Below, piece after piece: positions 15,634 to 31,302 of a DNA stretch of 64,000 bases. A program made the position numbers and the translations under genes. The notes beneath the pieces were generated by a model, which made no database searches, had not been told where the DNA came from, and saw nothing but the letters and a program-made list of their open reading frames with translations. Origin of the DNA: Nitrospirales bacterium. Its GTDB lineage: Bacteria; Nitrospirota; Nitrospiria; Nitrospirales; UBA8639. Position 1 is the first letter of the stretch, and every line of letters starts with the position of its first letter. The stretch is from positions 875,759 to 939,758 of the forward strand of contig CBDCWD010000004.1 of the NCBI GenBank assembly GCA_965223315.1, in the 5' to 3' direction.

Positions 15634-17271
15634 ATGCCCCCTAGCGTAAAGGACATTCCTAGAGGCCAGATTTCCGAATTCCCGAAGCATTGGCAACCCG
15701 ATATGATTTCGGGGTTTCTGGTGTTCTTGATCGCTCTTCCGCTGTGCCTAGGCATTTCCCTGGCCTGTGGCTATCCTGCCATAGCGGGCATCTTTACCGC
15801 GATTATCGGTGGAGTATTGGCCACCTTTTTTAGTAATTCAGAGCTCACCATCAAAGGGCCCGCGGCGGGACTCATTGTGATCGCCCTAGGATGTGTCACG
15901 GAATTTGGGTTTACAGGTGGGGAAGACCCTGCTGCTGACCTTCAAGCGTATCGCTTGGCCCTTGGCGTTGGTGTCGCCGCTGGATTGATCCAAATTCTTT
16001 TTGGAATCTGTCGCGCGGGAATTCTGGGAGAGTTTTTCCCGACCTCGGCAGTGCATGGCCTGCTCACGGCTATTGGAGTCATCATTATCGCCAAACAATT
16101 TCCGGTGGCCATGGGGTTGAGCCCAACAGGTACACCGTTGGAACTCTTGGCCAACATTCCACATTTTATTTTGAACATGAATCCCCTGGTTGGCCTCATT
16201 GGCGTGGTGAGTCTTGTCATCATGTTTGGGTATCCGTTTGTCAAGAATCCTCGGCTGAAGGCCATACCCGCGCCGATGCTTGTGCTGTGTATTACGGTTC
16301 CTTTAGCAATGTGGTTTGATATTGGGCAAGAGCAGACGTATGCTTTCCTAGGACAAGACTATCCATTGGGGAAGAATTTTCTGGTCGCGGTTCCAGAGAA
16401 TATGTTTTACGCCCTGACCTTCCCTGACTTTTCCGGTTTGGCGACGAGTATAGGGATAAAGTACGTGATCATGTTTGCGTTGATCGGCAGTATCGAATCC
16501 CTTCTCAGCGCAAAAGCGATTGATGAAATTGATCCATGGAAAAGAAAAACCGATCATGATCGAGATATGTTAGCGGTGGGAGTTGGCAATACACTGGCCT
16601 CATTTGTGGGCGGGCTTCCAATGATCTCGGAAATTGTTCGAAGCAAAGCCAATATTGACAATGGCGCACGCACTCGATTTGCGAATATGTTTCATGGTTT
16701 GTTTTTGCTGGGGTTTGTAGCGCTTGTGCCGGGTCTGATCAACCAAATCCCGCTTGCTGCTCTGGGAGCCATGCTGGTCTTTACGGGATTTCGACTAGCC
16801 TCCCCGCAGGAATTTCTCCATATGTGGCAGGTCGGCCGTGAGCAGTTTGTGATTTTTGTCTCAACGGTCATTGGAGTCTTGTCGACGGATTTGCTGATGG
16901 GTATCGCAATTGGCATTGGTGTGAATTTTCTCGTGCATCTCAAAAACGGAGCGCCTCCGAGGTCACTCTTGAAAACACAAGTGACGGTTGAACCGCAGGA
17001 ACGGGATGGCGTGGTTGTCCGGGTCAGGGATTCGGCGATTTTTAGTACATGGATTGGCCTGAAGAAAACCTTGGAGCCCCTCATGACCGAATCACGTGTG
17101 GTTCTGGATTTATCAGAGACGTTTCTGGTGGATCACACAGTTATGGCCAAACTCCAAGATATGGAAAAGGCTTTTCAGGAGCATGGTTCGACTTTAGTGC
17201 TGACAGGACTAGAACAGCATCAGCGACTCTCCAGTTACCCCACTGCTGCAAGGAAAAAACCTCGAACATGA
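15634..17271 (+). CDS. SulP/SLC26 anion permease with STAS domain (second, divergent copy)
   Basis: DMISGFLVFLIALPLCLGIS, TIKGPAAGL and GGLPMISEIVRS motifs, typical of SulPs linked to carbonic anhydrase or DAB genes. Confidence 0.92.
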   Translation: MPPSVKDIPRGQISEFPKHWQPDMISGFLVFLIALPLCLGISLACGYPAIAGIFTAIIGGVLATFFSNSELTIKGPAAGLIVIALGCVTEFGFTGGEDPAADLQAYRLALGVGVAAGLIQILFGICRAGILGEFFPTSAVHGLLTAIGVIIIAKQFPVAMGLSPTGTPLELLANIPHFILNMNPLVGLIGVVSLVIMFGYPFVKNPRLKAIPAPMLVLCITVPLAMWFDIGQEQTYAFLGQDYPLGKNFLVAVPENMFYALTFPDFSGLATSIGIKYVIMFALIGSIESLLSAKAIDEIDPWKRKTDHDRDMLAVGVGNTLASFVGGLPMISEIVRSKANIDNGARTRFANMFHGLFLLGFVALVPGLINQIPLAALGAMLVFTGFRLASPQEFLHMWQVGREQFVIFVSTVIGVLSTDLLMGIAIGIGVNFLVHLKNGAPPRSLLKTQVTVEPQERDGVVVRVRDSAIFSTWIGLKKTLEPLMTESRVVLDLSETFLVDHTVMAKLQDMEKAFQEHGSTLVLTGLEQHQRLSSYPTAARKKPRT

Positions 17272-17302
17272 ACTACTGAAGAGTTCAAGGGGATCTGAAT
17301 CA

Positions 17303-20300
17303 GTGAGACAAGAAGTTTCGCCTTTGACTCAAGAAGAACGAACACTTCTGCACGATGTGATCGAAGCGGCCTGTGAGCCGATTGCACCGTTTTGGCCGAT
17401 GCGAACCATGGTGGCTCAGAATCCAATTCATGGTTTGGAATATCTCCCGTTCGATGAGGCTGTCCGGCAAGGAAAAGATCTGCTTGGAGGCAATGGATAT
17501 CTGTCAAATGAAGATTATCGGCGGTTGTATCGAGAGGGACGAATAACGTCCAACAGCATTCAACAAGCCTTAACCCATGTGGGTCCTCAGTCGCATACGC
17601 AAGATTCTATTCAGATCGGGGCGCAGCCAGTATCGTCTCAAGATATTTGGCGCTGGCATTTGGTGACTGGGTTTGAGGAGTTAGAGCCTGCTCTCTTGCA
17701 ATGGGAACTGAGTGGAGGCAGGGCAACCAAACAGTTTCGTTCAGATTTTCCTGCTGACTCTAAACAACGGATTGTCCAGCGCACCATCAAAGATTGTGAG
17801 CGATGTCGGGATTTTCCTGAAGAAGCCTATCTCACCAATCTGTGGAATGCGACCTTGAGAGCGTTAGGGCTGCATGAGTCTTCCTCAGAAAAAAATCATG
17901 GTCAAGAATCTTCATCAACTGTAGAACAAGAGAGCCGTGAGATACCTATTCACTTACCTGTTCAGCGAACGATGAGTGATTGGATTGAACGCTTGAGCGG
18001 TGTTCCGCTTGTCGAACAAATTAATAACCAGATGATCAAGTGGATTGCGGCTTTTGTTGACGAAGGATTGGCCGGATGGGAGATGCCACAAAAGCACAGA
18101 GGCTTTTTCCTCACGTGGCGAGAGCTTGTGCAATGGGATCACTCGGGCCATTTTCTCGGGATCTCTGATTTTCACCAAAAGGTCAGGGACCTATCTGATG
18201 ACCCGGAGGAGGTGATCGTTTCGTGCCTGCGCTGTTCGGGTGTCCCCCAAGCTGAATGGAAAGCCTATCTGTCGCGGGAGTTATCGCAATTGCCCGGATG
18301 GACCCGGTATATTCGATGGCTGGGAGAGCATCCCCGGTATCATGCTCAACGAAAGCAACCTATTGATGTGCGGCAATATTTGGCGGTTCGGCTGGTGTAT
18401 GAAGTGGAGCTCACTCAGGTAATCTGCCAAAGGGAATGGGGAATTGAAGGAACCGTCCCTGCATTGCAGGAATTTTGGGGAGAACGTGGTGGAGAGTACG
18501 AACACCCTATTGGGTTAGGCCGTTGTTCCGTCGATCCCATCACGCAGATGACATGTCGAGATGCTTGGCGCTTGTTTCATCTTGCTCAATGCTTAGAAGT
18601 TGCCCCCGCTGACATGCATGACCTTTCAAGGACAGACGCTCAGGTCTTATTGAGATGGCTTGATGCCTTTCCATCCGATTTGCACGGCCCAGTTTGGTTA
18701 GAGGCTTTGGAAGATTCCTTTCGCAAAGATATCCTGGGGAAACTCTCGCTCCATTGTCAGGGCGTGAAAGATGTCGATACGCGCCCGCAGGCCCAATTGG
18801 TGTTTTGTATCGATGTCCGCTCTGAGTCGTTCCGCCGTCATATCGAAGCACAAGGTCCTTACGAGACATTTGGCTTTGCGGGATTTTTTGGCATTCCCAT
18901 CAGTCACCAGGCCTTTGATAGCGAACAGCGGTCTGATTTATGCCCGGTATTGTTGACACCCAATCATGCTGTGAGAGAAGTCCCTCGATCTGAGGAAAAC
19001 GACTCTTTGCAGAGGTATTCTTCCGGTACTCGATGGTATCATCTTGGGCATCATCTCTTTCACGATCTGAAACATCATCCCATTGGTTCGATGATGGTCA
19101 TTGATGTCCTGGGTTTCTTTTTTAGTCTTGGGTTAGTCGGTAAAACGTTGCTTCAAAAAATATTTCGTGGAATCACGTCTACCATCGAAGATTGGTTCAC
19201 CCATCGTGTACGGACTCAGATCGCGGTTTCTGCCTCTTCGGACCCCACGCATCCGAAAATCGGAGAAGTGCATCCAGAAGGGATTCCCAGTGATCTGGCG
19301 CAAGGGTTTTCTTTGACGGAACAGGCGACGTTTATCGAAAACGGGTTACGGGCAATGGGGCTAACAAAAAATTATGCGCGTCTCGTCTGTCTTTGTGGCC
19401 ATGGAAGCGAGACGGATAACAATCCCTATTATGGCGCACTGGATTGCGGGGCTTGTGGGGGAGCGCCGGGGGATGCGAATGCGCGAGTTTTTGCCGCGAT
19501 GGCGAATTCACCTGACGTTCGCCGCGTTCTTGGAGAAAAAGGCCTGTCTATCCCCAGCGATACCTGGTTTCTTCCAGGGAAACATAATACGACGACGGAT
19601 CGTGTACAGTTTTACGATGTAGAAGATCTGCCGGATAGTCATCTAGAAGATTTACGTGTGTTGGAGAAGGATCTCAAAGAGGCCGGTGCGAACCAAGCCC
19701 TTGAGCGTTGTCATCGTCTTCCACATGCTCCCACACAAATTTCTCCAGAACATGCTTTGGCTCATGTGGAGGAGCGTAGTTGCGATTGGGCCAATACCCG
19801 GCCGGAATGGGGGCTTGCTGGCAATGCCGCGTTTTTAATCGGGCGACGCCGTCTCACGAAAGGGCTGGATCTGGGCGGGCGGGTCTTCTTGCATTCGTAT
19901 GATCCCATTGCGGACTCTGCGGGTGGCATCCTTGAGAAGATCATGACGGCTCCATTGATTGTAGGAGAGTGGATCAATACGGGATATTATTTTTCAGGAG
20001 CCGACCCATGGAAGTATGGAAGCGGCAGTAAGGTCTTGCACAATGTGGTGGGAGGTGTGGGAATGATGCTAGGAAGTCAAAGTGACTTACAAATGGGATT
20101 TCCTTTGCAGACCGTGAACGATGGAGACCGTCATTATCATGAGCCCATGCGTCTTCTTGCCATCATTGAACACACACCGTGTGTTATTTCGTCAATTATC
20201 CAAAAACATGGAATCCTTCAGCAGTTGTTTCATAATCAGTGGCTTCATCTTGTGGCGCTAGATCCTCATGCATATGAGTTTCATCAATATCATGCTGATG

Positions 20301-20332
20301 GGCGGTGGGAAAGGGTTTCTCCAACTGAGTAG
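17303..20332 (+). CDS. dabA: DabA (DUF2309) beta-carbonic-anhydrase-like subunit of an inorganic carbon pump
   Basis: IAPFWP..TMVAQNP N-terminus, FCIDVRSE (Cys/Asp), CGHGS (His), LDCGACGG (Cys), HNTTTD, RPEWGLAGNA and RVFLHSYD. All four Zn ligands are present. Confidence 0.95.
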   Translation: MRQEVSPLTQEERTLLHDVIEAACEPIAPFWPMRTMVAQNPIHGLEYLPFDEAVRQGKDLLGGNGYLSNEDYRRLYREGRITSNSIQQALTHVGPQSHTQDSIQIGAQPVSSQDIWRWHLVTGFEELEPALLQWELSGGRATKQFRSDFPADSKQRIVQRTIKDCERCRDFPEEAYLTNLWNATLRALGLHESSSEKNHGQESSSTVEQESREIPIHLPVQRTMSDWIERLSGVPLVEQINNQMIKWIAAFVDEGLAGWEMPQKHRGFFLTWRELVQWDHSGHFLGISDFHQKVRDLSDDPEEVIVSCLRCSGVPQAEWKAYLSRELSQLPGWTRYIRWLGEHPRYHAQRKQPIDVRQYLAVRLVYEVELTQVICQREWGIEGTVPALQEFWGERGGEYEHPIGLGRCSVDPITQMTCRDAWRLFHLAQCLEVAPADMHDLSRTDAQVLLRWLDAFPSDLHGPVWLEALEDSFRKDILGKLSLHCQGVKDVDTRPQAQLVFCIDVRSESFRRHIEAQGPYETFGFAGFFGIPISHQAFDSEQRSDLCPVLLTPNHAVREVPRSEENDSLQRYSSGTRWYHLGHHLFHDLKHHPIGSMMVIDVLGFFFSLGLVGKTLLQKIFRGITSTIEDWFTHRVRTQIAVSASSDPTHPKIGEVHPEGIPSDLAQGFSLTEQATFIENGLRAMGLTKNYARLVCLCGHGSETDNNPYYGALDCGACGGAPGDANARVFAAMANSPDVRRVLGEKGLSIPSDTWFLPGKHNTTTDRVQFYDVEDLPDSHLEDLRVLEKDLKEAGANQALERCHRLPHAPTQISPEHALAHVEERSCDWANTRPEWGLAGNAAFLIGRRRLTKGLDLGGRVFLHSYDPIADSAGGILEKIMTAPLIVGEWINTGYYFSGADPWKYGSGSKVLHNVVGGVGMMLGSQSDLQMGFPLQTVNDGDRHYHEPMRLLAIIEHTPCVISSIIQKHGILQQLFHNQWLHLVALDPHAYEFHQYHADGRWERVSPTE

Positions 20333-20374
20333 ACATGCAGGGAAGTGTTGAATAAATCTGAAGGTGCGATCTAA

Positions 20375-20902
20375 ATGACCAAAAACGTTGTTGGGCATGG
20401 GGCGCGGCCACGGCCGATTTCATCACAATTTTTGATCTTAAAGGCCACGGCACTATTCGTGTTGTGGATGATGTTATCGGCCCGTTTCGATTGGATCCAT
20501 CTTGGATTGGGCTTAGTCCTGTCTTTCGCGGTTGCCTGGATTAATTCCGGCCATTCTCCCTTTGTTCCCAAGTTTCGATTATGGGGCAATATCCTGCTCT
20601 ATCTTCCCTGGCTTTTTGTGAAAATCGTACAAAGTAGTCTTCACCTCTCAAAGCTGATTCTTCATCCCGCGCTTCCCATAAATCCTCGGCTAATCAAAGT
20701 TGAGACGAAGTTGGGGCATCATGCAGCCGTGGTGCTGCTTGGCAATTCCATTACCTTAACTCCCGGAACGATTACCGCAGAAGTGGATCGTAATACTCTC
20801 ATCGTGCATGCCATGGATGAAGTTGCCGCCGAAGATGTCACAAGCGAGCGGATTGAATCGAAAATTGCTGAAATTTTTAAGAATGAAGAGCCTGATTTGT
20901 GA
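20375..20902 (+). CDS. mrpE: Mrp/Mnh Na+/H+ antiporter subunit E
   Basis: LGNSITLTPGTITAEV and LIVHAMD motifs. Confidence 0.92.
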   Translation: MTKNVVGHGARPRPISSQFLILKATALFVLWMMLSARFDWIHLGLGLVLSFAVAWINSGHSPFVPKFRLWGNILLYLPWLFVKIVQSSLHLSKLILHPALPINPRLIKVETKLGHHAAVVLLGNSITLTPGTITAEVDRNTLIVHAMDEVAAEDVTSERIESKIAEIFKNEEPDL

Positions 20903-21165
20903 AAATATTTCTTCTCGGTGTCTTATTACTCTTAGCCCTCCTCATTGGTGTCTATCTTTATCGTGTGCTTCAGGGCCCTACAATTTTTGATCGCGTCCTG
21001 GGTCTCAATGGCATTTCCACCAAGGCGATCATTTTACTGATTGTGATGGGTATGTATTTTGAGCGAGTCGACATGTTTGTCGATATCTCGACGGGATATG
21101 CTCTCTTAAATCTAGTGGGAGCTCTTGCCGTCGCCAAGTTTCTGGAACAAAGAGGACTGCCGTAA
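20899..21165 (+). CDS. mrpF: Mrp/Mnh subunit F
   Basis: YRVLQGPTIFDRVL motif; overlaps the mrpE stop. Confidence 0.9.
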   Translation: MKIFLLGVLLLLALLIGVYLYRVLQGPTIFDRVLGLNGISTKAIILLIVMGMYFERVDMFVDISTGYALLNLVGALAVAKFLEQRGLP

Positions 21166-21166
21166 C

Positions 21167-21466
21167 ATGGAAGTGCTTGCCATAGGTTGTATTCTCGCCG
21201 GGCTATTTTTTTTGATTGTTGCGGCAATCGGCGTGATTCGCCTGCCCGATGTGTTTAGTCGGTCTCATGCGGTGTCACTTACAGACTCGTTGGGGGCCTT
21301 TTTGATGCTCGTGGGTGTGGCGCTTCATGAGGGCTTGAGCGCGAGTATGCTGAAAATCATAGCGGTCCTGGCACTACTGTACATCCAAAATCCGGTCATT
21401 GCCCATGCGACTGTTCGCGCAGCGCTTCGTGCTGGCTTGAAGCCCTGGAAAAAGGAGCATTCATGA
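21167..21466 (+). CDS. mrpG: Mrp/Mnh subunit G
   Basis: IGVIRLPDVFSRSHA and NPVIAHA motifs. Start set to ATG 21167, 1 bp after the mrpF stop. Confidence 0.9.
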   Translation: MEVLAIGCILAGLFFLIVAAIGVIRLPDVFSRSHAVSLTDSLGAFLMLVGVALHEGLSASMLKIIAVLALLYIQNPVIAHATVRAALRAGLKPWKKEHS

Positions 21467-21993
21467 TATTTTCCTATGAAATTCCCCTCCTGGTTTTACT
21501 GCTCGTGACAGCAGCCGGCGCGATCTTAGTCAAGGATCTGATGAGCGCCATCTTATTGTTGGGTTGCTACAGTTTTTTCCTTGCCTTGGTGTGGGCGTGG
21601 CTGGGTGCGGTTGATGTGGCGTTTGTCGAAGCCGTCGTTGGCGCTGGTTTAGCCACCGTGCTTTTCTTACTCACCCTATTTGGAACCGCACCAAAAGACA
21701 ATCGTCTCAGGCGGCCTCCGCCTCCGATGGCGGCACTGATTGCCCTTCCGCTTCTGGGAGTTCTGTTGCTCTATGCCGCAAACGATCTTCCAGAGTTTGG
21801 AGATCCACGTTCCCCGGCCAGTGTGCATATTTCACCGACATATCTCGAACAGAGTTATCCAGATTCTCATACGCCAAATGTCGTGACATCGGTCCTGATG
21901 GATTACCGGTCCCTTGATACCATGGTGGAAACGGTGGTGATTTTTACCGCAGGCATTGCTTGCGCACTATTGTTGCGGAGGCAACCCTCATGA
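21463..21993 (+). CDS. Mrp subunit: DUF4040 (MrpA C-terminal piece) fused to the MrpB N-terminal piece (MbhD/E-like)
   Basis: LGAVDVAFVEAVVGAG and TPNVVTSVLMDYRSLDTMVE motifs. Confidence 0.85.
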   Translation: MIFSYEIPLLVLLLVTAAGAILVKDLMSAILLLGCYSFFLALVWAWLGAVDVAFVEAVVGAGLATVLFLLTLFGTAPKDNRLRRPPPPMAALIALPLLGVLLLYAANDLPEFGDPRSPASVHISPTYLEQSYPDSHTPNVVTSVLMDYRSLDTMVETVVIFTAGIACALLLRRQPS

Positions 21994-22442
21994 TTCGCCC
22001 TCACGATAGTGTTATCGTGCAGACCTTAGGACGGTTTCTGATTCCGGTGATCCAGATTTTTGGTTTGTATGTGTTGTTTTTTGGCCAATATGGCCCTGGG
22101 GGAGGATTTGTTGGAGGGGTGATATTAGGCACCGGCATGATCTTATCGGTGCTCATTTTTGGCCACGATGCTTCCCGGAGCCAGATTGCGAAAAAAGTGT
22201 TGCACGGCGATGGAGTCGGCATGTTGATTTATGCCGGCGTTGGCGGATTGTGCATGATTGGCGGCGGGGAATTTCTCAACTATGCCAATTTGGAGATTCC
22301 GGGGCTTGAGACGGCTTCACGCCGATCTTTGGGAATTGTGTTGACGCAAATTGGCGTGGCTGTGGACGTGGCTGTGACGGCGGTGTCCATTGTCTTCAGT
22401 CTTTCTGCCGAAGAAATTATTGAGGATTCAATGAATGGGTGA
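21990..22442 (+). CDS. mrpB: Mrp/Mnh subunit B (MbhF-like)
   Basis: GQYGPGGGFVGG motif; ATGA overlap with the previous gene. Confidence 0.88.
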   Translation: MIRPHDSVIVQTLGRFLIPVIQIFGLYVLFFGQYGPGGGFVGGVILGTGMILSVLIFGHDASRSQIAKKVLHGDGVGMLIYAGVGGLCMIGGGEFLNYANLEIPGLETASRRSLGIVLTQIGVAVDVAVTAVSIVFSLSAEEIIEDSMNG

Positions 22443-22812
22443 TCTGTTTTCTGCCGTCTTTCAGCGCCCCAACTTTTTGACGTTTGTCATTATCTTCCTG
22501 TGGGGCTTTTATATCATGGTGACCCGGTACAACCTCGTCAAGAAATTGGTCGGATTGTATCTTGTCCAGACCAGCGTGATTTTTTTCCTGGTCTCTATTA
22601 GTGCGAAAAAGCACTCGACAGTCCCGGTCCTGCTGTCGACAACTGAACCTGTGCGAGCCATGAACTATGCGAATCCGTTGCCACATGTGCTGACGTTGAC
22701 AGCTATTGTGGTGGGTGTCGCCACGCTGGGTGTGGCATTGGCGTTGTGTGCGGCTATTTATCGACGATACGGCAGTCTTGATGAGGAAGAGATTTTAAAA
22801 AAACTAGAATGA
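22435..22812 (+). CDS. mrpC: Mrp/Mnh subunit C (NuoK-like)
   Basis: NLVKKLVGL and NPLPHVLTLTAIVVG motifs. Confidence 0.92.
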   Translation: MGDLFSAVFQRPNFLTFVIIFLWGFYIMVTRYNLVKKLVGLYLVQTSVIFFLVSISAKKHSTVPVLLSTTEPVRAMNYANPLPHVLTLTAIVVGVATLGVALALCAAIYRRYGSLDEEEILKKLE

Positions 22813-24278
22813 GGCATCATTTCCCAGCCCTGCTCTTTCTGTTCCCTTTGTTTGCCGCGATCGCCATGCCGGTTGTCTGTTTGAGGCACCGGCAGTGGAG
22901 CCGGCCCATCGCTCTCGCGGTGCTTGGCGCCATGGTTGTGGTCTCTATTCTGAATCTGAATAGCGTCATTAATGATGGAGAAGTGCGATATGCCTTCAGT
23001 GGCTGGATTGCACCATTAGGCATTGAGTGGGTCGCGGATGGATTGGCGAGTGTCATTATGGTGACGTTGAGTACGTTGGGTTTGCTGGCGTTGGTATTTA
23101 CCGGTCCCACTTCACCAAAAGATTTGGGGGGACGGATCGTTCATTATCATATCTTGATCTTGTTGCTTATTTCCGCGCTTACCGGAATCGTGTTTGCGGG
23201 AGATCTCTTTAATCTATTTGTGTTTTTGGAAGTCGCGGCCATATCCAGTTATGCGCTGATTGGTGTGGCCGGCGGGCGAGCGCTGTTTGCGGCGTTTCGC
23301 TACCTTGTGCTGGGGACGCTTGGGGCGTCTCTCTACTTACTGGGCGTGAGTTATTTCTACGCAGCCAGTGGCACGCTCAATATGGCAGATATGGCAGAGA
23401 AGCTTCCCCAACTCTTGACTTCCAAAGCGGTTGTGGGCGGGCTTCTGTTTATGTTCATTGGGTTGGGTATCAAGATGGCGTTGGTGCCATTTCATGCATG
23501 GTTGCCGGATGCCTATACCTATGCCCCCGAATCCATCTCTCCTATCTTAGCGGCATTAGTGACCAAAGTGGCGTTGTTAGGGTGGGTCCGCATTATTTAC
23601 TGGGTCTTGGGGGCTAAGGCCATTGTGTACGACATTCCCGTGCTCGTGCTCGTGGGGGTACTTGGCACTCTGGCAGCGGTCATTGGGGCGGTTCTGGCCT
23701 TGTCGCAGCGGGATATAAAGATGATGTTTGCCTATGGAGGAATTTCCCATATTGGCATCATTCTTATTGGCGTGAGTCAAGGGAATCATACGGGATTTGT
23801 CGGGGGTATTTTTTATTTACTAAACGATGCCGTGATGCAAGCGGCCTTGTTTTTTTTAGCAGGGGTCGCGATCTGCCAGTATGGCGTTCGGACTGTCGAG
23901 GATCTTGGAAAGATTGGGAAGCGCGCGCCTTGGTTTACGGGGGGCTTGGTCGTGGTGGCGTTGGGCATGATCGGCCTTCCTCCAACTGGGGGCTTTTTTG
24001 GAAAATGGTATATCATTCTCGGAGCGCTTGAAGCCAATAATTATATTGCGGTCGCCGCGGTTTTACTTTCAACTCTTTTGACGCTTGCCTATTTCGTCAG
24101 ACTATTTGAGGCGCTCTTTCGTCCGCTGGCCTCTGACTCGGAAACCGCATTCGGGGATATTCCGTTTCCGTTTAAACTGAGTGTGGGAGTAACGTCGGCG
24201 GCCGTCATGATCTTGGGACTGTTCAGCGACCCGATTGTTCAGTTTTTGTTGAATCAGGCTCTGCCACCAGGTATCTAA
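22809..24278 (+). CDS. mrpD: Mrp subunit D-type antiporter-like subunit
   Basis: GDLFNLFVFLE, KMALVPFHAWLPDAY, LVTKVA and GLPPTGGFFGKW motifs. Confidence 0.9.
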   Translation: MRHHFPALLFLFPLFAAIAMPVVCLRHRQWSRPIALAVLGAMVVVSILNLNSVINDGEVRYAFSGWIAPLGIEWVADGLASVIMVTLSTLGLLALVFTGPTSPKDLGGRIVHYHILILLLISALTGIVFAGDLFNLFVFLEVAAISSYALIGVAGGRALFAAFRYLVLGTLGASLYLLGVSYFYAASGTLNMADMAEKLPQLLTSKAVVGGLLFMFIGLGIKMALVPFHAWLPDAYTYAPESISPILAALVTKVALLGWVRIIYWVLGAKAIVYDIPVLVLVGVLGTLAAVIGAVLALSQRDIKMMFAYGGISHIGIILIGVSQGNHTGFVGGIFYLLNDAVMQAALFFLAGVAICQYGVRTVEDLGKIGKRAPWFTGGLVVVALGMIGLPPTGGFFGKWYIILGALEANNYIAVAAVLLSTLLTLAYFVRLFEALFRPLASDSETAFGDIPFPFKLSVGVTSAAVMILGLFSDPIVQFLLNQALPPGI

Positions 24279-24286
24279 CCAAGGCC

Positions 24287-26386
24287 ATGGCGATCTTTGT
24301 TCTCATCCCTTTGCTTCCTCTCATGGCTTCGCTTGTCCTTGTGCTTGGAGGACGACGATGGGGCGAGCACAGCCACCGAATTGGCATTCCTGCCATTGGT
24401 CTGTCTTTTGGTTTGTCGGTGTTTGCCTTTCTTGAGGTTCTGCGCCACGGGCCTTTCTCGCTCTCTCTGTATCGTTTCTTTCAGTCCGGGGCGTTGACCA
24501 TTAATTTCAGCCTTTATGTGGATCAACTCACGGTTCTCCTTTTGCTCTTGGTCACAGGTGTGAGCGCTCTTGTGCATGTCTATTCGTCTCGATACATGAT
24601 CGGGGACCCACGATACAATCGGTTCTTTGCGGTCATCGCATTGTTTACCTTTTCCATGGTGCTACTTGTCATGAGTGGCAATCTCTTGATGTTGCTCGTC
24701 AGTTGGGAGGTGATGGGTATCTGCTCATATCTCTTAATCTCCCATGCCGCACAAAGACCCTCGGCCGGACGGGCAGCGACCAAAGCATTCTTGGTGAATG
24801 CGGTGGCGGATGTGGGGTTAAGTTTTGGAATTATCTTGACCTTTTTTACATTCGGCACGCTCGACATTCAGACCATTCTCGCCCAGGCTGACAGCATGCA
24901 ACATCAGACGGTCAATATCATGGGATGGATCGGGGGCAATCTTGCTGTGAATCCCGTGACGTGGATTCCTTTCTTTCTGTTCTTAGGAGCCATGGGCAAG
25001 TCAGCTCAAATGCCCTTTCATGTATGGTTGCCATTTGCCATGGAAGCCCCTACTCCAGTCTCGGCGTTAATTCACGCGGCCACGATGGTGAATGCCGGTC
25101 CGTTCCTGCTCGTGCGGCTGAGCCCCTTGCTCGTCCTTTCTCCGTTCACCATGACATTCATTGCGGTCATTGGAGCCAGCACGGCGCTGTTTGCGGGTCT
25201 TGTTTCATTGACGCAGTCGGACATCAAAAAGATCTTGGCGTATTCCACGATTAGCCAAATTGGTTTCATGATCATGACCTGCGGTTTAGGTGCGTTTGTT
25301 GTGACGATCTTTCATCTCCTTGCTCATGGCTGTTATAAAGCGTTCTTTTTTCTGTCCACTGGTAATGCGCTCCGGTCGGTGGAGCCGGGTCGTGTCCATA
25401 GAGGAAATCATGAGCATCATAGTCCGCAGGGCATGGGAATGTTGTATGGGGGCGCGCTGGCCTTAGCGTTGATTCCTCCGATTATTCTGTTTTCAGGGGC
25501 ATATGAATACTTGTGGGGGGTAACGGGATTTGCCTCTGCCACAATGGGATTTCGCGTCATTGGTCTAATCACTGTCTTTGTGGCTTCTCTGTATCTTTTC
25601 CGAAGTGTCACGTCGCTATTTGTTTATGGTCCGAAGACGTATTGGCCGGTTTCCGGCCAATTGGGATCACAGACGCATTCCATCCGGCCGCAGTTTGTGA
25701 ATGGGGCGATTTTGACTGGGCTTTTCGTCGCCACTCTTGTCATCGGGGCGATGTTGACCCTGTTTTGGACGTGGTTTGCCAACTTCTTAGCTCCAGCGTT
25801 GATCTCACCCACGGCGGTGTTCCATGAAGGAACGGATAAGGCGGGCCTCTCGATATGGATGCTCATGGCTATTGGAATGGCGATTGCCGGATGGGCCTAT
25901 GCCTACTGGCAGGTTCAATCAGGCTCGCAGGTCGCAACAGCAGGCAGTAGGAACAAAAAGTTATACGTCCTCTTCTGGAATAAATGGTATTTTGATGAAT
26001 TCTATGATGTCTATGTGGTGAATCCCACCATTCGGTTTGCCGAATGGCTTTGGCGCTTCGTTGATGTGAATGTGATCGATGCATTCATACATTCCATCGC
26101 GACCTACTCCATTCTTTTGGCCCAGTGGCTCTGGCGAATCGTGGATATCAAAGGCATTGATCGAATGGTGATGGGTATCGGACGGCAGAGTGTTGGAATG
26201 GGCAGTTGGCTGTGGCAAGTGGTGGATATTCGATGGCTGGAACAGAGAGTCAGTCAAATGGGCAGACAAGCGGATACGGCAGGGCAACTCTTACAAGAGG
26301 TTGAACCTCGTACCCTCCAACACCAACTACTTGTCATGATATTTTGGCTGGTCTTGGCAACTGGGCTATTATATCTTTTGGTGTAA
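24287..26386 (+). CDS. NuoL/MrpA/DabB-family antiporter-like subunit with an extended lateral helix
   Basis: SWEVMG, GKSAQMPFHVWLPFAMEAPTPVSALIHAAT and KKILAYSTISQIG motifs; three 27-aa repeats in the C-terminal amphipathic helix. Confidence 0.9.
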   Translation: MAIFVLIPLLPLMASLVLVLGGRRWGEHSHRIGIPAIGLSFGLSVFAFLEVLRHGPFSLSLYRFFQSGALTINFSLYVDQLTVLLLLLVTGVSALVHVYSSRYMIGDPRYNRFFAVIALFTFSMVLLVMSGNLLMLLVSWEVMGICSYLLISHAAQRPSAGRAATKAFLVNAVADVGLSFGIILTFFTFGTLDIQTILAQADSMQHQTVNIMGWIGGNLAVNPVTWIPFFLFLGAMGKSAQMPFHVWLPFAMEAPTPVSALIHAATMVNAGPFLLVRLSPLLVLSPFTMTFIAVIGASTALFAGLVSLTQSDIKKILAYSTISQIGFMIMTCGLGAFVVTIFHLLAHGCYKAFFFLSTGNALRSVEPGRVHRGNHEHHSPQGMGMLYGGALALALIPPIILFSGAYEYLWGVTGFASATMGFRVIGLITVFVASLYLFRSVTSLFVYGPKTYWPVSGQLGSQTHSIRPQFVNGAILTGLFVATLVIGAMLTLFWTWFANFLAPALISPTAVFHEGTDKAGLSIWMLMAIGMAIAGWAYAYWQVQSGSQVATAGSRNKKLYVLFWNKWYFDEFYDVYVVNPTIRFAEWLWRFVDVNVIDAFIHSIATYSILLAQWLWRIVDIKGIDRMVMGIGRQSVGMGSWLWQVVDIRWLEQRVSQMGRQADTAGQLLQEVEPRTLQHQLLVMIFWLVLATGLLYLLV

Positions 26387-26412
26387 TCAACTTCCTGGAT
26401 AGGGGCCTGCTG

Positions 26413-27918
26413 ATGAGCATATTCACTGATCATATTATTAGTTGGATGATTGCGGTTCCCTTTTTAGGAATCGTTGCCCTTGCATTTCTCCGCGATGAAG
26501 AATGGATTCGCCGAATGGCTTTCGCCACAACGATGGCGGAGTTTCTGCTCTCGCTGATCTTGTGGAGGAACTTCGATTTCACTCAACAGGGTATGCAATT
26601 CGTTGAGCGTATGGAATGGATGCCTACCTTCAATATTCAGTATGCCGTTGGTGTAGATGGGATCAGCATCCTGTTAGTCATCCTCACCGCTCTTCTGTGT
26701 CCACTTTGCGTTCTGTGTTCGTGGAGTGCCATTACCACGCGGGTGCGAGCCTATTTGTCGTTGATTTTACTGGTGGAAGGCGCGATGATCGTCGTGTTTA
26801 CAGCCTTAGATCTTTTCCTGTTTTTCATGTTGTGGGAACTCACCATGATTCCCATGTATTTCATGATCATTCTTTGGGGAGGGCCCAATCGCATCACGGC
26901 GGGAATTAAATTTGTCTTGTACAGCTTGACAGGCAGTTTATTGTTGCTCGTGGGAATTCTTGGCCTCTACTTGGAAGGCGGACATACCTACGATCTGTTG
27001 GTTCTCAGCGAACAAACCTATTCCTCGAAGACACAATTCTGGCTATTCCTGGCGCTCTTTTTGGCGTTTGCCATCAAAATGCCCATGGTGCCTTTTCACA
27101 CCTGGTTGCCAGACGCACATTCCGAGGCCCCGACTGCTGGCAGCGTGATTTTAGCGGGAGTGCTACTAAAAATGGGGGGCTATGGATTCTTGCGCTTTTG
27201 CTTGCCGATGTTTCCCGAAGCCTCAGCCAAGTTTGCTCCGTATATATTATGGCTTTCGGTTATCGCCATTGTCTATGGCGGCTACATGGCGTTAGCGCAG
27301 ATTGACCTCAAAAAACTTGTGGCATACTCGTCGGTTTCACATATGGGATTTGTCACCCTTGGGATTTTTGTCTTTAACAGTCAGGGCATCCAAGGGGCCA
27401 TCTTGCAAATGTTCAATCACGGCATTACAACCGCCGCGCTCTTTATTTCAGTTGGTCAGCTGTACGACCGCACCCATAGCCGGGTTATCAGTGACTATGG
27501 CGGCTTGCATAAACCCATGCCGAAATTTGTGGCGTTTTTTTTCTTGTTCTCAGTTGCGGCATTTGGCCTGCCAGGCACCTGTAATTTCATTGGCGAGTTT
27601 TTGGTGCTGGTCGGGACGTCCTATGTGAATTTCGCCATGGTCCTGATTTCCATGGGAGGTATTGTCTTAGCGGCGGCCTATATGCTGTGGATGCTGCAAC
27701 GGTTGGCGTTGGGTGAGCCTTCCACGAAGGTGGCGGCAGTCCTTCCTGATCTCACCACTCGCGAGTTGGCCTCGGTGATTCCTTTGGCCATTGTTGTCCT
27801 GTGGATCGGGTTATATCCTGGCCCTCTTATGGAAATGATGGATGCAAGCGTGACGCACCTCGTTCAGCAGGTCGCTGCATACACATCCCCTCTTCCTGAA
27901 AACACGGTCCTGCGTTAA
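26413..27918 (+). CDS. NuoM-type antiporter-like subunit
   Basis: VGVDGIS, WELTMIPMY, KMPMVPFHTWLPDAH, LLKMGGYG, QMFNHG and NFIGEF are canonical NuoM motifs. Start set to ATG 26413. Confidence 0.92.
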   Translation: MSIFTDHIISWMIAVPFLGIVALAFLRDEEWIRRMAFATTMAEFLLSLILWRNFDFTQQGMQFVERMEWMPTFNIQYAVGVDGISILLVILTALLCPLCVLCSWSAITTRVRAYLSLILLVEGAMIVVFTALDLFLFFMLWELTMIPMYFMIILWGGPNRITAGIKFVLYSLTGSLLLLVGILGLYLEGGHTYDLLVLSEQTYSSKTQFWLFLALFLAFAIKMPMVPFHTWLPDAHSEAPTAGSVILAGVLLKMGGYGFLRFCLPMFPEASAKFAPYILWLSVIAIVYGGYMALAQIDLKKLVAYSSVSHMGFVTLGIFVFNSQGIQGAILQMFNHGITTAALFISVGQLYDRTHSRVISDYGGLHKPMPKFVAFFFLFSVAAFGLPGTCNFIGEFLVLVGTSYVNFAMVLISMGGIVLAAAYMLWMLQRLALGEPSTKVAAVLPDLTTRELASVIPLAIVVLWIGLYPGPLMEMMDASVTHLVQQVAAYTSPLPENTVLR

Positions 27919-27967: not shown

Positions 27968-29389
27968 CTAGGATTGTTTGTCCTGGTTACGTAGCAGCGT
28001 CTCGTAATTGTGTTGATAGAGTCGGGCGGTGGGATGGTCAACGCCAAACGTTTCGGTAATGATTGGAATGGCGCGTTCATACAATGTGATGGCTTCTTGA
28101 GTGTGTCCTTGAAGTTCGAGGACAGACGCGAGGTTGTTGAGTGTTGAAGCCACTTTAGGATGGTGAAGCCCGAGGGATTTCTCTCTGATGTCTAAAGCTT
28201 GTTCGTACAGGTGCCTGGCTTTAGCGAGGTGCCCCTGTTGTTGTCGCAAGCCCGCATAGTTAGTCAAGATAGTTGCCACTTGCAAATGGTCCGTCCCAAG
28301 ACTTTCACGAGCACGTGATAGCGCCTCGAGATAAAGAGACTCAGCCTTTGAGAACTGGTCCTGGCTTTGATGAAGTTCTGCCATATTGTTTAAAATTGTG
28401 ACATGTTGATCAAGATGGGGGGCTGGAGATCGATGTAATAGGATTAACGCTTCTTCATAGTGGTGATGCGCCAGAGAATATTGTTGCTGTTCTTGGTACA
28501 GGCTACCCAAGTTCTGTTGAAGCGTGATCATGGAAGAAAAATCCGAAAATGGAAGATTGTCGACCATGTGTAAGGCTTGCTTATACAGCGATTCGGCAAC
28601 CGTATATTCCTGTTGTATGTGATGGAGCCGTGCTGAATTGTTTAACACTCTGATAAGTTGAGGCGCCGCTCCTGAGGCTTTTTTGAGATACCCAATGGCT
28701 TGCCCGTACTGCCGTTGGGCTTCAACGTAGCGCCCCTGTGCTTGAAGCACTTCTCCTAATGTATTAATCGTAGCGCCTAAGGTACTGTAAGGAGGGTGCT
28801 GGTGTTGCTCCAGCAACACTAAGGCCCGACGGATATAGATTTCAGACTTAGAAAATTGTTCTTGTTTCCAATAAAGTTCTCCAAGGTTCGTAATCGTTGA
28901 AGCCATGAGAAGAGAATTGGGGGGCTTTTGTTGTTCCAGGATCTCTAACGCCCGTTTCAGAAGTTGTTTAGCTTCGTCCAAATTTCCTTGTGTTCGGTAA
29001 ATAATGGCGAGATTGTTCAGGCTCGTTGCAAGTTCAGGATGGGACGCCCTGCGTGTGTGTTCCAACAATTGAATGGTTTTGCGATAGTGTGTCTCAGCCG
29101 AGTCCAAGAGTCCCAGGGCATACTGTGTTCTGGCGATGTGATAGTGGCTATTGGCTAAACGGATGTTGTCTGTCTTAAGTTCATGAGCCGCGTCTTTGGC
29201 TTTTGTAAAATGTGTAAGGGCATCGGTAAATTGTCTTCGGTCGTAGGCCTTTGTGCCCTCGTCTATGGACATCTCCCATAAATCAACATTGTGGGAACAG
29301 CCGATGAGGATGACCGAGAGAAGCACCAGGCGTAAGTTGAAAATTCCCAGAATTGAATGTCTCGATATTGAGTGTGAAAAAATAGTCAT
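27968..29389 (-). CDS. TPR-repeat putative lipoprotein (kinesin-light-chain-type 42-aa repeats)
   Basis: Lipobox-like LIGC; repeated HP..A..LNNLA units. Confidence 0.85.
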   Translation of the reverse strand: MTIFSHSISRHSILGIFNLRLVLLSVILIGCSHNVDLWEMSIDEGTKAYDRRQFTDALTHFTKAKDAAHELKTDNIRLANSHYHIARTQYALGLLDSAETHYRKTIQLLEHTRRASHPELATSLNNLAIIYRTQGNLDEAKQLLKRALEILEQQKPPNSLLMASTITNLGELYWKQEQFSKSEIYIRRALVLLEQHQHPPYSTLGATINTLGEVLQAQGRYVEAQRQYGQAIGYLKKASGAAPQLIRVLNNSARLHHIQQEYTVAESLYKQALHMVDNLPFSDFSSMITLQQNLGSLYQEQQQYSLAHHHYEEALILLHRSPAPHLDQHVTILNNMAELHQSQDQFSKAESLYLEALSRARESLGTDHLQVATILTNYAGLRQQQGHLAKARHLYEQALDIREKSLGLHHPKVASTLNNLASVLELQGHTQEAITLYERAIPIITETFGVDHPTARLYQHNYETLLRNQDKQS

Positions 29390-29537
29390 GATGCCCGTAA
29401 TGGTGGATCGAAGAGGGCTGGCGAGTCAACCCTCCATGTGATGGTCCTCGTAGAGGACGACATTAATGGACGATACTCGTGTTTATGTGACAATGCGTTC
29501 AATTATCCAGCAACCCTTGCTTTTTCGTGGTATTGTC

Positions 29538-29565
29538 TCAAGAACTCTTTTTGAACCGCCGAAAA
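29538..29565 (+). promoter_or_regulatory. Sigma28 (FliA)-type promoter candidate
   Basis: TCAAG-N15-GCCGAAAA upstream of the lipoprotein and MotB-like genes. Confidence 0.6.
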
Positions 29566-29651
29566 GAGACTCGAACAGGTCTCATCAAATTGCTGACTAC
29601 AGAGATTGATACAGCATCTTTGGCGTAAATACGTATCGTGTCGGAGGTGAA

Positions 29652-29933
29652 ATGCCCGAAAGCAATCCTATGAAGAACCGTCAACACCGGCAGAATTGTG
29701 TGTTCGTTCTTGTTATGTGTGCCATCGTCAGTTGTGGATGTAGCCAAGTTGTGACTGTCTATTGGTCAAAACCTGGAGCAGGTAATGCTGAATTACAACG
29801 GGATAAAGATGAGTGCCAGTCCTTACAACGGGCTGTTGGACTCGCTGAAAGCCGAATAGAAAAATGTCTTGTCGCAAAGGGATGGGAAAAAGTCCGGCAA
29901 GAGGAAGGACCTACGGGTTCCGATTCTGAATGA
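29652..29933 (+). CDS. Small hypothetical lipoprotein
   Basis: GGAGG RBS, hydrophobic signal ending SCGC, paired Cys (ECQ, KCL). Confidence 0.7.
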   Translation: MPESNPMKNRQHRQNCVFVLVMCAIVSCGCSQVVTVYWSKPGAGNAELQRDKDECQSLQRAVGLAESRIEKCLVAKGWEKVRQEEGPTGSDSE

Positions 29934-29994
29934 ATAAGGGATTAAGAAAAAGCATGAGAGGTCTGTGGTCAGATTCATGTAGAGGAGTCACGTT

Positions 29995-31143
29995 ATGAAC
30001 ACGACGAAATGTATAGGTGCCCTGGTCCTTATTGTATGGATGTTTGGGGGGTGTGTGAGCCAACAGGCTCATGAACGGGCTATGGAAGAATTGGAAATGG
30101 CCAGCCAAAGTTCGGCTCAAGAAGTAGAGCGGTTGCAACGTATTGTGGAAGAACAGCAGTCCCAAGTCGTTCAACTGGAGGAGAATACGCAAGAGCTGAA
30201 GCGGGAGGTAGAAACGAAAGAGCAAGCCGTGGTCCAACTCCAGGAAGAAAATGTGGATTTAGTGGATGCTGTCAAAGTTCAAGAACAAGAAAAAGAACAG
30301 CAACTGGAAGCGGTGAAAGCCGAGTTGGAGAAACTCTATTCCGAGATTGCAGGCCTGCAATCGTTGACGGGGGTTGGTTCACTTTCCCGAGAGAGTCTGG
30401 AAGGGAGTGACCTGAATGATTTGGGTGGCATGGCTAGAGCCTTTCAGCAGGTTCGGGATAGCCTGAAGTCGCAAATTGACCATTTTTCTCAATTACAAAA
30501 GGACAATCAAGCCTTAGAGCAAAACCTTGTACAGCTAGAAGAACGTCTGAAAAATGTTGAGCGGCTGAAAAAGGAATTGGAAGAAGTGCGGGCAGCTCGT
30601 GCGGCGCAAGAGTCTCAATTGGCTCAAGTCAAACAAGAAGTCAATACTGTGAGCCGAGAAATTGATCGCATTACGCAAGCCTTAGAAGAAAAATTTGGGA
30701 AGAGTTTGGTCGTGACCCAACATCAGGATCGATTGGTCCTCACGATGCTAGGCCAAATCTTGTTTGCGTCGGGGGAAGCGCAACTCACCCCTCTGGGATT
30801 AGATATTATGAAACAGGTCGGGGAAGTTTTGGCCACCTTGCCAAATAAAAATATTCAAGTCGAAGGTCATACCGATAGCAACCCTATTTATGGACGACTC
30901 CAACAAAAATTTCCGACGAATTGGGAACTATCAACGGCTCGAGCGACGACCGTGCTTCGGTATTTGATTGAGCAAACCGGAATGGATCCTAAAGATTTTG
31001 CGGCGACTGGTTATGCTGATACACGGCCAGTGGTGGCGAACGACTCTGAAGAGGGGCGGGCTCAAAATCGACGTGTCGAAATTGTGCTATATCCAGAGAA
31101 AATTGTTGAAGAAAATAAAAAAATGGCAACGGTTGCCCAATAA
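29995..31143 (+). CDS. OmpA/MotB-domain lipoprotein with a long coiled coil
   Basis: FGGC lipobox, long heptad region, then VEGHTD, NWELSTARA, GYADTRP and NRRVEI peptidoglycan-binding motifs. Confidence 0.9.
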   Translation: MNTTKCIGALVLIVWMFGGCVSQQAHERAMEELEMASQSSAQEVERLQRIVEEQQSQVVQLEENTQELKREVETKEQAVVQLQEENVDLVDAVKVQEQEKEQQLEAVKAELEKLYSEIAGLQSLTGVGSLSRESLEGSDLNDLGGMARAFQQVRDSLKSQIDHFSQLQKDNQALEQNLVQLEERLKNVERLKKELEEVRAARAAQESQLAQVKQEVNTVSREIDRITQALEEKFGKSLVVTQHQDRLVLTMLGQILFASGEAQLTPLGLDIMKQVGEVLATLPNKNIQVEGHTDSNPIYGRLQQKFPTNWELSTARATTVLRYLIEQTGMDPKDFAATGYADTRPVVANDSEEGRAQNRRVEIVLYPEKIVEENKKMATVAQ

Positions 31144-31221
31144 CAGTGGCGGTTTCTGACGAAGTTTGCCCCTTGATATTTTCACTATTCAACACTCATA
31201 TAGTGCTAAATGCGCTTTTCA

Positions 31222-31255
31222 CCCTCACCCCAACCCTCTTCCTCAAAGGAGAGGG
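31222..31255. repeat. REP-like palindrome (CCCTCACCCCAACCCTCT...GGAGAGGG type), possible bidirectional terminator
   Basis: Lies between convergent genes; CCCTCT pairs with the downstream GGAGAGGG arm. Confidence 0.55.
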
Positions 31256-31302
31256 CGTTCTGAAATGTCTTAACTGAAAGTTAAAATACTCTATCAATTT
31301 AT

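Follow-up and report, generated by a model that had tools for sequence, protein, structure and literature searches.

A conserved gene block joins DabA, a group 3 Mrp module and complex-I-type NuoL and NuoM in Nitrospirales and other bacteria

We analysed a 64,000-nucleotide stretch of the genome of a Nitrospirales bacterium (assembly GCA_965223315.1, contig CBDCWD010000004.1, positions 875,759 to 939,758 of the forward strand), called the window below. At positions 15634-27918, on the plus strand, lies a tightly packed block of eleven genes, sulP-dabA-mrpEFG-A'-BCD-nuoL-nuoM, where A' stands for the C-terminal part of MrpA. Judged by its predicted products, the block is a three-part chimera of DabA, a group 3 Mrp core and complex-I NuoL and NuoM. 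The order of the mrp genes is already known; the DabA-Mrp-NuoLM assembly is what is new. We suggest, and consider it rather probable, that the ten genes from dabA onwards encode one membrane complex, in which a hybrid Mrp/complex-I arm is combined with DabA. The block would probably build an ion-driven carbon-uptake machine in marine nitrite oxidisers.

Conservation of the block

With DabA as the query, 80 loci were fetched, 61 of them with at least 7.8 kb downstream. All relatives described here come from metagenome-assembled genomes (MAGs), and their taxonomy is taken from record titles. The series DabA-E-F-G-A'-B-C-D-NuoL-NuoM is complete and colinear in 55/61 loci, which belong to Nitrospirota, Nitrospinota, Acidobacteriota, Myxococcota and Pseudomonadota; two DabA-linked loci from a second survey, described below, add Planctomycetota as a sixth phylum. 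In three of the six exceptions a canonical dabB-dabA pair is inserted after dabA and pushes the tail, that is nuoL and nuoM, beyond the fetched flank. In one exception NuoM is missing where the fetched flank ends, probably by truncation, and in another the mrpC match is split. The last one (L074, 9920-13310) is the only locus of the DabA clade without mrp genes downstream; its dabA is frameshifted into frames of 333 and 844 amino acids (aa) and is probably a decaying copy.

Some clusters (L011, L036, L062) have a canonical dabB-dabA pair upstream of dabA. In these and in the three loci with an inserted pair, the DabA of the pair has about 1080-1097 aa and is 31-36% identical to the DabA of the window, and its DabB has about 565 aa. 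Where such a pair stands beside or inside the cluster, the organism carries both pump types side by side.

A separate lineage of the membrane genes, which we call type B (L002, L021, L034, L052, L078), has Mrp subunits about 50% identical to those of the window and a NuoL of 640-645 aa, compared with about 672-726 aa elsewhere, or roughly two 27-aa repeats of the lateral helix fewer. This clade is monophyletic both in the tree of the seven concatenated Mrp subunits and in the NuoL+NuoM tree. Thus, the length of the lateral helix co-varies once with the type of the Mrp module, and the shared deep subclade indicates that the module and the NuoL+NuoM pair co-evolve.

A further DabA-Mrp-NuoLM lineage is found in L086 (11777-15939) and L087 (13587-16102), where MrpD is 56% identical to that of the window and an MpsC-family gene (PF10057) and a SulP gene lie downstream of the block. 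In L086 a protein of two PF08332 domains, a family that includes iota-carbonic anhydrases, is encoded there as well; the contig of L087 ends within the corresponding gene, to which Pfam assigns no domain. These downstream genes are a clustered inorganic-carbon toolkit.

Gene order of the Mrp module

The positions 20375-24278 of the plus strand hold exactly seven Mrp genes, E-F-G-A'-B-C-D, as assigned with Pfam and NCBIfam. Their E-values of 1e-13 to 1e-56 mean that the assignments are not due to chance. An earlier note on this DNA, made from the letters of the sequence, had read the order as E-F-G-(DUF4040+B')-B-C-D and equated it with mbhA-H of membrane-bound hydrogenases. Both readings are correct: the domains confirm the order, and it is that of mbhA-H in Table 2 of Haja et al. 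2021 (PMC8415708) and in an actual Mbh-type locus (L092). The note also took the order for the mark of a module of Mbh/Mbs type, and here the evidence points elsewhere. Group 3 Mrp clusters are defined by irregular gene order (Ito et al. 2017, PMC5703873), and in the window the domain types of the MrpA C-terminus, B, C, D, E, F and G are all present in an order other than ABCDEFG. The stand-alone Mrp of P. furiosus is likewise encoded as mrpEFGBB'CD, where 'MrpB' is MbhD and MbhE fused and MrpB' is MbhF (PMC8415708).

The 176-aa product of A' equals this 'MrpB', being an MbhD+MbhE fusion. It reaches 168.8 bits against NF009159 (cut-off 141), corresponds to the C-terminal part of MrpA with transmembrane helices (TM) 17-21, aligns with residues 605-761 of Dietzia MrpA and is 56% identical to its counterpart in L082, a stand-alone cluster. 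We considered the fusion as a marker of stand-alone versus Mbh clusters and rejected it, as about half of the stand-alone loci give two separate matches there.

The second survey was made with a profile of 18 MrpDs from loci without DabA, which fetched 80 genome loci from at least 17 phyla. Among them 59 are stand-alone clusters, from at least 15 phyla, which end in a second MrpD-like gene (D2), in some loci a small gene (x), and a last PF00361 gene (A). Eight are DabA-linked, five have a NuoL/MrpA-like tail with no DabA seen, and eight are cut short; 0/80 are linked to a hydrogenase. The order E-F-G-A'-B-C-D occurs in 65/69 of the loci that hold both MrpE and MrpD. The nearest MrpD relatives without DabA (P0124, P0126, P0129) and a more distant one from a spore-former (P0143) all lie in stand-alone clusters of the layout MNHE-MrpF-MrpG-(MbhD+MbhE)-MnhB-MrpC-MrpD, followed by a second MrpD-like gene, a gene of 71-95 aa and a PF00361 gene of 564-605 aa. 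Neither DabA nor a hydrogenase is present in these four contexts, and the flanking genes are unrelated; the contigs of P0122, P0127 and P0189 are too short to show a context. As a positive control we used P0247, the sister of MbhH in the tree described below, whose locus L092 is a true Mbh cluster with genes of NuoB, NuoC, [NiFe], NuoH and ferredoxin type. Since these head genes were detected, they would have been seen in the related loci if present. Hence, the hydrogenase-type reading of the gene order should be dropped: the order itself is ordinary and is the published group 3 Mrp order.

The small, conserved open reading frame between the second MrpD and the last PF00361 gene of the stand-alone clusters (L082, 9462-9677; L084, 9085-9318; L085, 3826-4071; L089, 12281-12526) has no Pfam match. 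It has one or two hydrophobic stretches and a C-terminal R(K/R)E.(F/Y)YD motif, and it is absent from the DabA-linked block. In three loci of Balneolota/Bacteroidota (L114, L117, L145) and one of Ignavibacteriota (L127), NuoL-, NuoM- and NuoN/MrpD-like genes adjoin the stand-alone Mrp, divergently in three loci and upstream on the same strand in L127. They may mark where a nuo operon ends, or be a different way of combining Mrp with complex I.

Phylogeny of the seven subunits

A first homologue search with MrpD returned only matches from within its own clade, at 78% identity or more. We then searched 1.84 billion representatives at 50% identity with phmmer, and the best 150 matches all have at least 223 bits; MbsH, MbhH and the MrpDs of Bacillus, Anoxybacillus and Dietzia lie at 136-185 bits. 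The scores against PDB entries (for MrpD: MbsH 185, Bacillus MrpD 173 and MbhH 168 bits; for the DUF4040 protein A': 27-38 bits) were rejected as a discriminator because they do not separate Mrp from Mbh, so that a tree was needed.

The MrpD tree comprises 145 sequences: the representatives, 20 DabA-linked MrpDs, five PDB references read from the HMMER alignments, and NuoM of the window as the outgroup. The DabA-linked MrpDs form one clade (Shimodaira-Hasegawa-like approximate likelihood ratio test, SH-aLRT, 99), which lies deep inside a clade of 130 sequences (98) that also holds its stand-alone neighbours. All five references, namely MbhH and MbsH of P. furiosus and the MrpDs of Bacillus, Anoxybacillus and Dietzia, are outside the latter. 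The approximately unbiased (AU) test rejects a union of the DabA-linked sequences with MbhH, MbsH and the two sisters of these (p-AU 0.012), at a loss of 162.5 units of log-likelihood. Ehr and Hyf were compared by profile and PDB scores only; EhbF has 178, hydrogenase-4 B 154 and HycC 82 bits, against 257-315 bits for the MrpD models.

All seven subunits score higher to three stand-alone clusters than to the Mbh cluster L092, and they are 36-63% identical to and colinear with the nearest stand-alone clusters. The tail genes, NuoL and NuoM, are not orthologous to the D2 and A genes of those clusters (23-34% identity). The phylogeny of Mrp with Mbh and Mbs thus contradicts an Mbh origin of the module, and the outcome is the one that the earlier note had named as refuting its reading: the DabA-linked clade nests among stand-alone Mrp of the same order. 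Most likely, nothing is missing from the seven genes as a group 3 Mrp module like those that stand alone in bacteria, and their order would be ancestral to the family and not borrowed from Mbh.

Tail subunits and pump residues

The NuoM-like protein has 429-431 bits to Nad4/NuoM and about 110 to MrpD or MbhH of the PDB; the NuoL-like one has 257-275 bits to Nad5/NuoL, 145 to DabB2 and 130 to MrpA. MrpA is split, as the earlier note had it, in that its C-terminal part is a separate gene, but the place of its N-terminal part is taken by a complex-I-type NuoL and not by a split-off piece of MrpA. Membership of NuoL and NuoM in complex I was considered and rejected, as no other nuo gene is found in the operon with Pfam.

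The NuoL-like protein keeps E141 (TM5), K238 (TM7), H263, H342, H346 and K350. However, the Lys-Asp motif of TM12 (K399 of E. coli NuoL, FFSKDEIL) is replaced by FSG[A/S/P]YE in every DabA-linked locus. The canonical DabB of the same organisms also lacks the lysine of TM12 and additionally has Gln in place of the TM5 Glu. The lysine is kept in complex I NuoL, and the MrpA-like tails of Vicinamibacterales without DabA keep GFWSKD. The NuoL-like protein of the window has 699 aa. Its lateral helix is more than 100 residues long, and an anchor follows at the C-terminus. In complex I the lateral helix clamps several neighbouring subunits.

In four Vicinamibacterales MAG loci (L104, L106, L110, L113) a third type of tail follows E-F-G-A'-B-C-D: a MrpA/NuoL-like protein of 681-778 aa with a lateral helix and an intact TM12 GFWSKD, and then a second MrpD-like protein. 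No DabA is found within 10 kb upstream of them.

The pump residues of MrpD (E141, K222, K253, K399) are present, and NuoM keeps E164, K244, K275 and E418; by these residues both are fully pump-competent. D62 and E83 of MrpF are invariant across the DabA-linked, stand-alone and Mbh-type sets. More generally, the charged residues of MrpF, MrpG and the MrpA C-terminal protein are invariant in the DabA-linked and stand-alone sets, and those of MrpF and MrpG also in the Mbh-type locus. These patterns are indirect evidence for the predicted Na+(K+)/H+ antiport.

DabA and its docking site

DabA of the window matches DabA2 (PDB 9rd0_A) at 2.9e-119. Its zinc ligands C502, D504, H700 and C715, a Cys-Asp-His-Cys site, are invariant in 65/65 clade members. 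It has a single conserved hydrophobic helix (593-617) with a buried Asp, which matches the 'finger/elbow' helix of DAB complexes. In the DAB2 and DAB1 structures the NuoL-like DabB takes up this helix, and the NuoM helices beside NuoL are those to which DabC aligns (DAB1: PMC13684180).

Three PF00361 membrane genes share the operon with dabA, and none of them adjoins it. The loss of the TM12 lysine correlates with the linkage to DabA, which points to the NuoL-like subunit as the equivalent of DabB and would place DabA at the distal end of the arm and not at a NuoH-type anchor. NuoH/MbhM-, NuoB-, NuoC-, NuoD/[NiFe]- and NuoI-like genes were sought with Pfam among the eleven operon genes and five flanking genes, and none was found. 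The proposal of the earlier note that the module is a coupling device to which DabA is attached is supported by the conservation of the block and from the exchange of the tail for complex-I-type genes, but its second half, DabA at the place of the redox head, finds no NuoH/MbhM-like anchor to stand on. Instead, the most likely docking site of DabA is distal, on the NuoL-like subunit. The 'energy-input module' that the seven-gene Mrp is missing would then most likely be supplied by NuoL and NuoM with DabA on top.

Proposed machine

The content and order of the genes, their phylogenetic position, the conservation of the block and the residue patterns are observed; from them we infer the physical assembly, the docking site, and the ion used and its direction. 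In one lineage the ancestral tail of the stand-alone clusters, that is the second MrpD, the protein of about 80 aa and the third PF00361 protein of 564-605 aa, would have been exchanged for NuoL and NuoM of complex-I type. In the same lineage dabA, often with sulP, would have been placed in front of the Mrp genes.

The resulting arm may have the order NuoL - NuoM - MrpD - (MrpA-Cterm/MrpC/MrpB) - MrpEFG. The NuoL-like subunit, as the equivalent of DabB, would receive the conserved hydrophobic 'finger' helix with which DabA docks. The Mrp part might couple Na+/H+ exchange to the movement of protons via the three antiporter-like subunits, and this coupling would make the hydration of CO2 at the zinc site of DabA vectorial. 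The outcome would be an inorganic-carbon pump of DAB type that can draw on the sodium gradient of seawater, and for organisms that live there Na+ is an attractive driving ion of a hydratase.

In its widest form the proposal is tentative, with chances somewhat short of even. The block would be a redox-free relative of complex I, with DabA on NuoL/NuoM and a full Mrp arm, in which the Na+ gradient of seawater or the proton-motive force drives vectorial CO2 hydration. It would serve as the main carbon pump of the dominant nitrite oxidisers of the ocean (Nitrospina and marine Nitrospira), and the Mrp core would be a general-purpose coupling unit. If this is true, the seven-gene core accepts hydrogenase, sulfur-reductase, MrpA and DabA/NuoLM input modules.

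Alternative readings

Several observations weigh against a single complex. The NuoL-like subunit scores nearer to respiratory NuoL than to DabB (275 bits to Nad5 against 145 to DabB2), so that by score the presumed partner of DabA falls outside the DabB clade, and unlike DabB it keeps the TM5 glutamate. A canonical dabB-dabA pair stands between dabA and mrpE in L010, L054 and L075, type B members are scattered in the DabA tree with no shared split, and the MrpD tree is a quick LG+G4 search on one subunit with Ehr and Hyf sequences outside it. The seven-gene Mrp of P. furiosus works without any MrpA (PMC8415708), so that the Mrp block could be autonomous and DabA, NuoL and NuoM a separate trimer. 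The published annotation, too, is that of an Mrp antiporter supporting BicA (PMC7784846). A rival picture, which we regard as rather unlikely, is that of two machines in one operon: an autonomous group 3 Mrp would recycle Na+ from the SulP/BicA symporter, next to a DAB1-like trimer with NuoL in the place of DabB and NuoM in that of DabC, the two cooperating but not touching. It accords with DAB1 being a DabA-DabB-DabC trimer whose DabC aligns with NuoM helices, with the Mrp/NhaB-BicA cooperation proposed by Daebeler et al. 2020 (PMC7784846) for the homologous Nitrospira locus, with the SulP and NhaB neighbours in the window, and with the fact that the canonical pair inserts without dispersing the cluster. 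We nevertheless favour the single complex because the interleaved order, with seven mrp genes between dabA and its supposed partners, is kept across five phyla in 55/61 loci; because the stand-alone relatives that extend far enough (among the 59) have three antiporter-like subunits and the tail is here replaced, not added, so that on the simplest view NuoL and NuoM stand structurally where the lost subunits were; because NuoM and MrpD are fully pump-competent by their residues; because a 699-aa NuoL with its lateral helix and anchor needs neighbours; and because the trees of the seven Mrp subunits and of NuoL+NuoM share the same deep type B split.

The single complex could also run in the opposite direction, which seems very unlikely to us. 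SulP would import HCO3- with Na+, Mrp would swap the Na+ for external H+, and with the proton thus delivered DabA would turn HCO3- into CO2 by dehydration, to feed those ferredoxin-dependent carboxylases of the reductive tricarboxylic acid (rTCA) cycle that take CO2. The hosts are by their record titles Nitrospira- and Nitrospina-type nitrite oxidisers, which fix carbon by this cycle (PMC8115632), the usual direction of Mrp is H+ in and Na+ out (PMC5703873), and in most Nitrospirota loci the operon opens with sulP, directly 5' of dabA. But in most Nitrospinota loci no SulP match lies directly upstream of dabA, the characterised DAB complexes all hydrate CO2, and the sequence itself fixes no direction. 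Hardly tenable, finally, is the reading of the earlier note, by which the Mrp module of Mbh/Mbs would be the ancestor or a specific relative of the module described here, with DabA in the place of the hydrogenase or sulfur-reductase head. The shared mbhA-H order speaks for it, as does MbsH being the best single PDB match of MrpD, and the N-terminal part of MrpA is replaced here much as MrpA is replaced by a head in Mbh (PMC8415708). Against this stand the position of MbhH and MbsH outside the well-supported clade of 130 sequences, the AU test, the higher scores of all seven subunits to stand-alone clusters, head and anchor genes numbering 0/11 in the operon, the lack of hydrogenase-linked loci among the 80 related ones, and the solved DAB complexes, in which DabA sits on a NuoL-like and not on a NuoH-like subunit.

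Layout of the locus

The features are listed in Table 1. The gaps between the genes of the block are at most 42 nucleotides, and several starts overlap the preceding stop, so that the genes are translationally packed. The block extends beyond the mrp genes, with the NuoL- and NuoM-like genes directly 3' and with dabA and sulP 5'. A scan for promoters and terminators within the operon stays at background (15 sites against 13.8 expected, and 21 against 17.5). A search of sequencing runs gave runs whose kind is not stated, probably DNA, and none with an RNA label. For SulP the NCBIfam models of BicA and SulP both match under their cut-offs. The probable start of mrpG is the ATG at 21167, one nucleotide past the mrpF stop, and that of mrpB is the ATG at 21990, in an ATGA overlap with the preceding stop.

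Table 1. Genes of the DabA-Mrp-NuoLM operon and two downstream genes, in window coordinates
Position	Strand	Product	Evidence
15634-17271	+	SulP-family anion transporter, BicA-like, with STAS domain; first gene of the operon	PF00916 4.6e-57
17303-20332	+	DabA, 1009 aa, beta-carbonic-anhydrase-like CO2 hydratase subunit	PF10070 6.4e-264
20375-20902	+	MrpE (MbhA equivalent)	PF01899 1.7e-33; 38% identity to stand-alone L082
20899-21165	+	MrpF (MbhB equivalent)	PF04066 1.1e-13; 57-63% identity to stand-alone L082
21125-21466	+	MrpG (MbhC equivalent)	PF03334 1.4e-21; TIGR01300 above cut-off
21463-21993	+	MrpA C-terminal protein (DUF4040), 176 aa, MbhD+MbhE fused	PF13244 residues 11-74, PF20501 residues 118-173
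21960-22442	+	MrpB (MbhF equivalent)	PF04039 1.7e-22
22435-22812	+	MrpC, NuoK-like (MbhG equivalent)	PF00420 7e-21
22809-24278	+	MrpD (MbhH equivalent), antiporter-like subunit	PF00361 6e-56
24287-26386	+	NuoL-like subunit, 699 aa, complex-I type, probable DabB equivalent	TIGR01974 480 bits, above cut-off
26344-27918	+	NuoM-like subunit, complex-I type; probable start ATG 26413	Nad4/NuoM 429-431 bits
29995-31143		OmpA/MotB-like protein with coiled coil	
31303-32898	-	NhaB	

On the 3' side of the operon (27968-32898) a convergent TPR gene ends the block, followed by the OmpA/MotB-like gene and NhaB. This neighbourhood is the same as Daebeler et al. 2020 describe for 'Ca. N. alkalitolerans'.

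Significance

A literature search found no publication that describes an association of DabA/DUF2309 with Mrp/Mnh, and two DAB structure papers of 2026 do not mention one. A survey of the same year lists Nitrospira DabA genes 'lacking a companion membrane gene' (PMC13147460). In the Nitrospira genome papers the locus appears as a salt/pH antiporter and DabA is overlooked, so its place in current metabolic reconstructions may be wrong.

Across six phyla, two complex-I pump subunits and a full Mrp antiporter are joined with a CO2-hydrating enzyme in the conserved ten-gene block. If these form one machine, the DAB family would grow from two or three subunits to ten and would offer a natural system in which to study the transfer of energy from antiporter-like subunits to a catalytic site without redox chemistry. 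It would also bear on carbon acquisition by marine nitrite oxidisers, whose energy source is very poor.

Comparison with known systems

The stand-alone Mrp of P. furiosus (PF1147-53; PMC8415708), likened here from its published description, has the same seven-gene order and domain layout and no full-length MrpA. However, it is archaeal and has neither NuoL/NuoM-like genes nor DabA. The nearest relatives are the bacterial stand-alone clusters E-F-G-A'-B-C-D-D2-x-A (L082, L084, L089), which share the order and the tight packing but end in D2, the small protein and the PF00361 protein of 564-605 aa, with no DabA and no SulP.

In Mbh and Mbs (PDB 6CFW, 6U8Y) and in L092 the mbhA-H order is shared, and the Mrp module is likewise an ion-translocating unit attached to another catalytic unit. 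Unlike in the window operon, NuoB-, NuoC-, NuoD/[NiFe]-, NuoH- and NuoI-like genes follow the Mrp part (L092), and MbhH and MbsH are not the closest relatives of the window MrpD.

A locus of 'Ca. Nitrospira alkalitolerans' and lineage IV Nitrospirales, judged by the text of the papers, has the same layout: BicA/SulP, a group 3 Mrp, extra nuoL/nuoM, a motB/ompA-like gene and nhaB (Daebeler et al. 2020, PMC7784846; PMC12342949). In both papers it is taken for an antiporter that has additional Mrp-like genes, and their texts do not contain DabA, DAB or DUF2309.

The DAB complexes, DAB2 (DabA2-DabB2, PDB 9rd0) and DAB1 (DabA-DabB-DabC of Thermocrinis albus, PMC13684180), have a homologous DabA with the same Zn ligands and a membrane-inserting helix. 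Their NuoL-like partner lacks the TM12 lysine, as in the window, and DAB1 has a NuoM-like neighbour. The window differs from them in having nine membrane subunits instead of one or two, with a complete Na+/H+ antiporter module attached, a NuoL-like subunit of complex-I type with the TM5 glutamate kept, and a full-length NuoM that is pump-competent by its residues.

An analogous idea is realised in the cyanobacterial NDH-1MS (CupA on NdhF3/NdhD3; PDB 6TJV), where a CO2-hydrating head sits on the distal subunits, of NuoL/NuoM type, of a membrane arm like that of complex I. However, CupA and DabA are not related, and NDH-1MS is powered by the redox reactions of NDH-1. The NuoL-like subunit of the window has 110 bits to NdhF3 against 271 to NdhF1.

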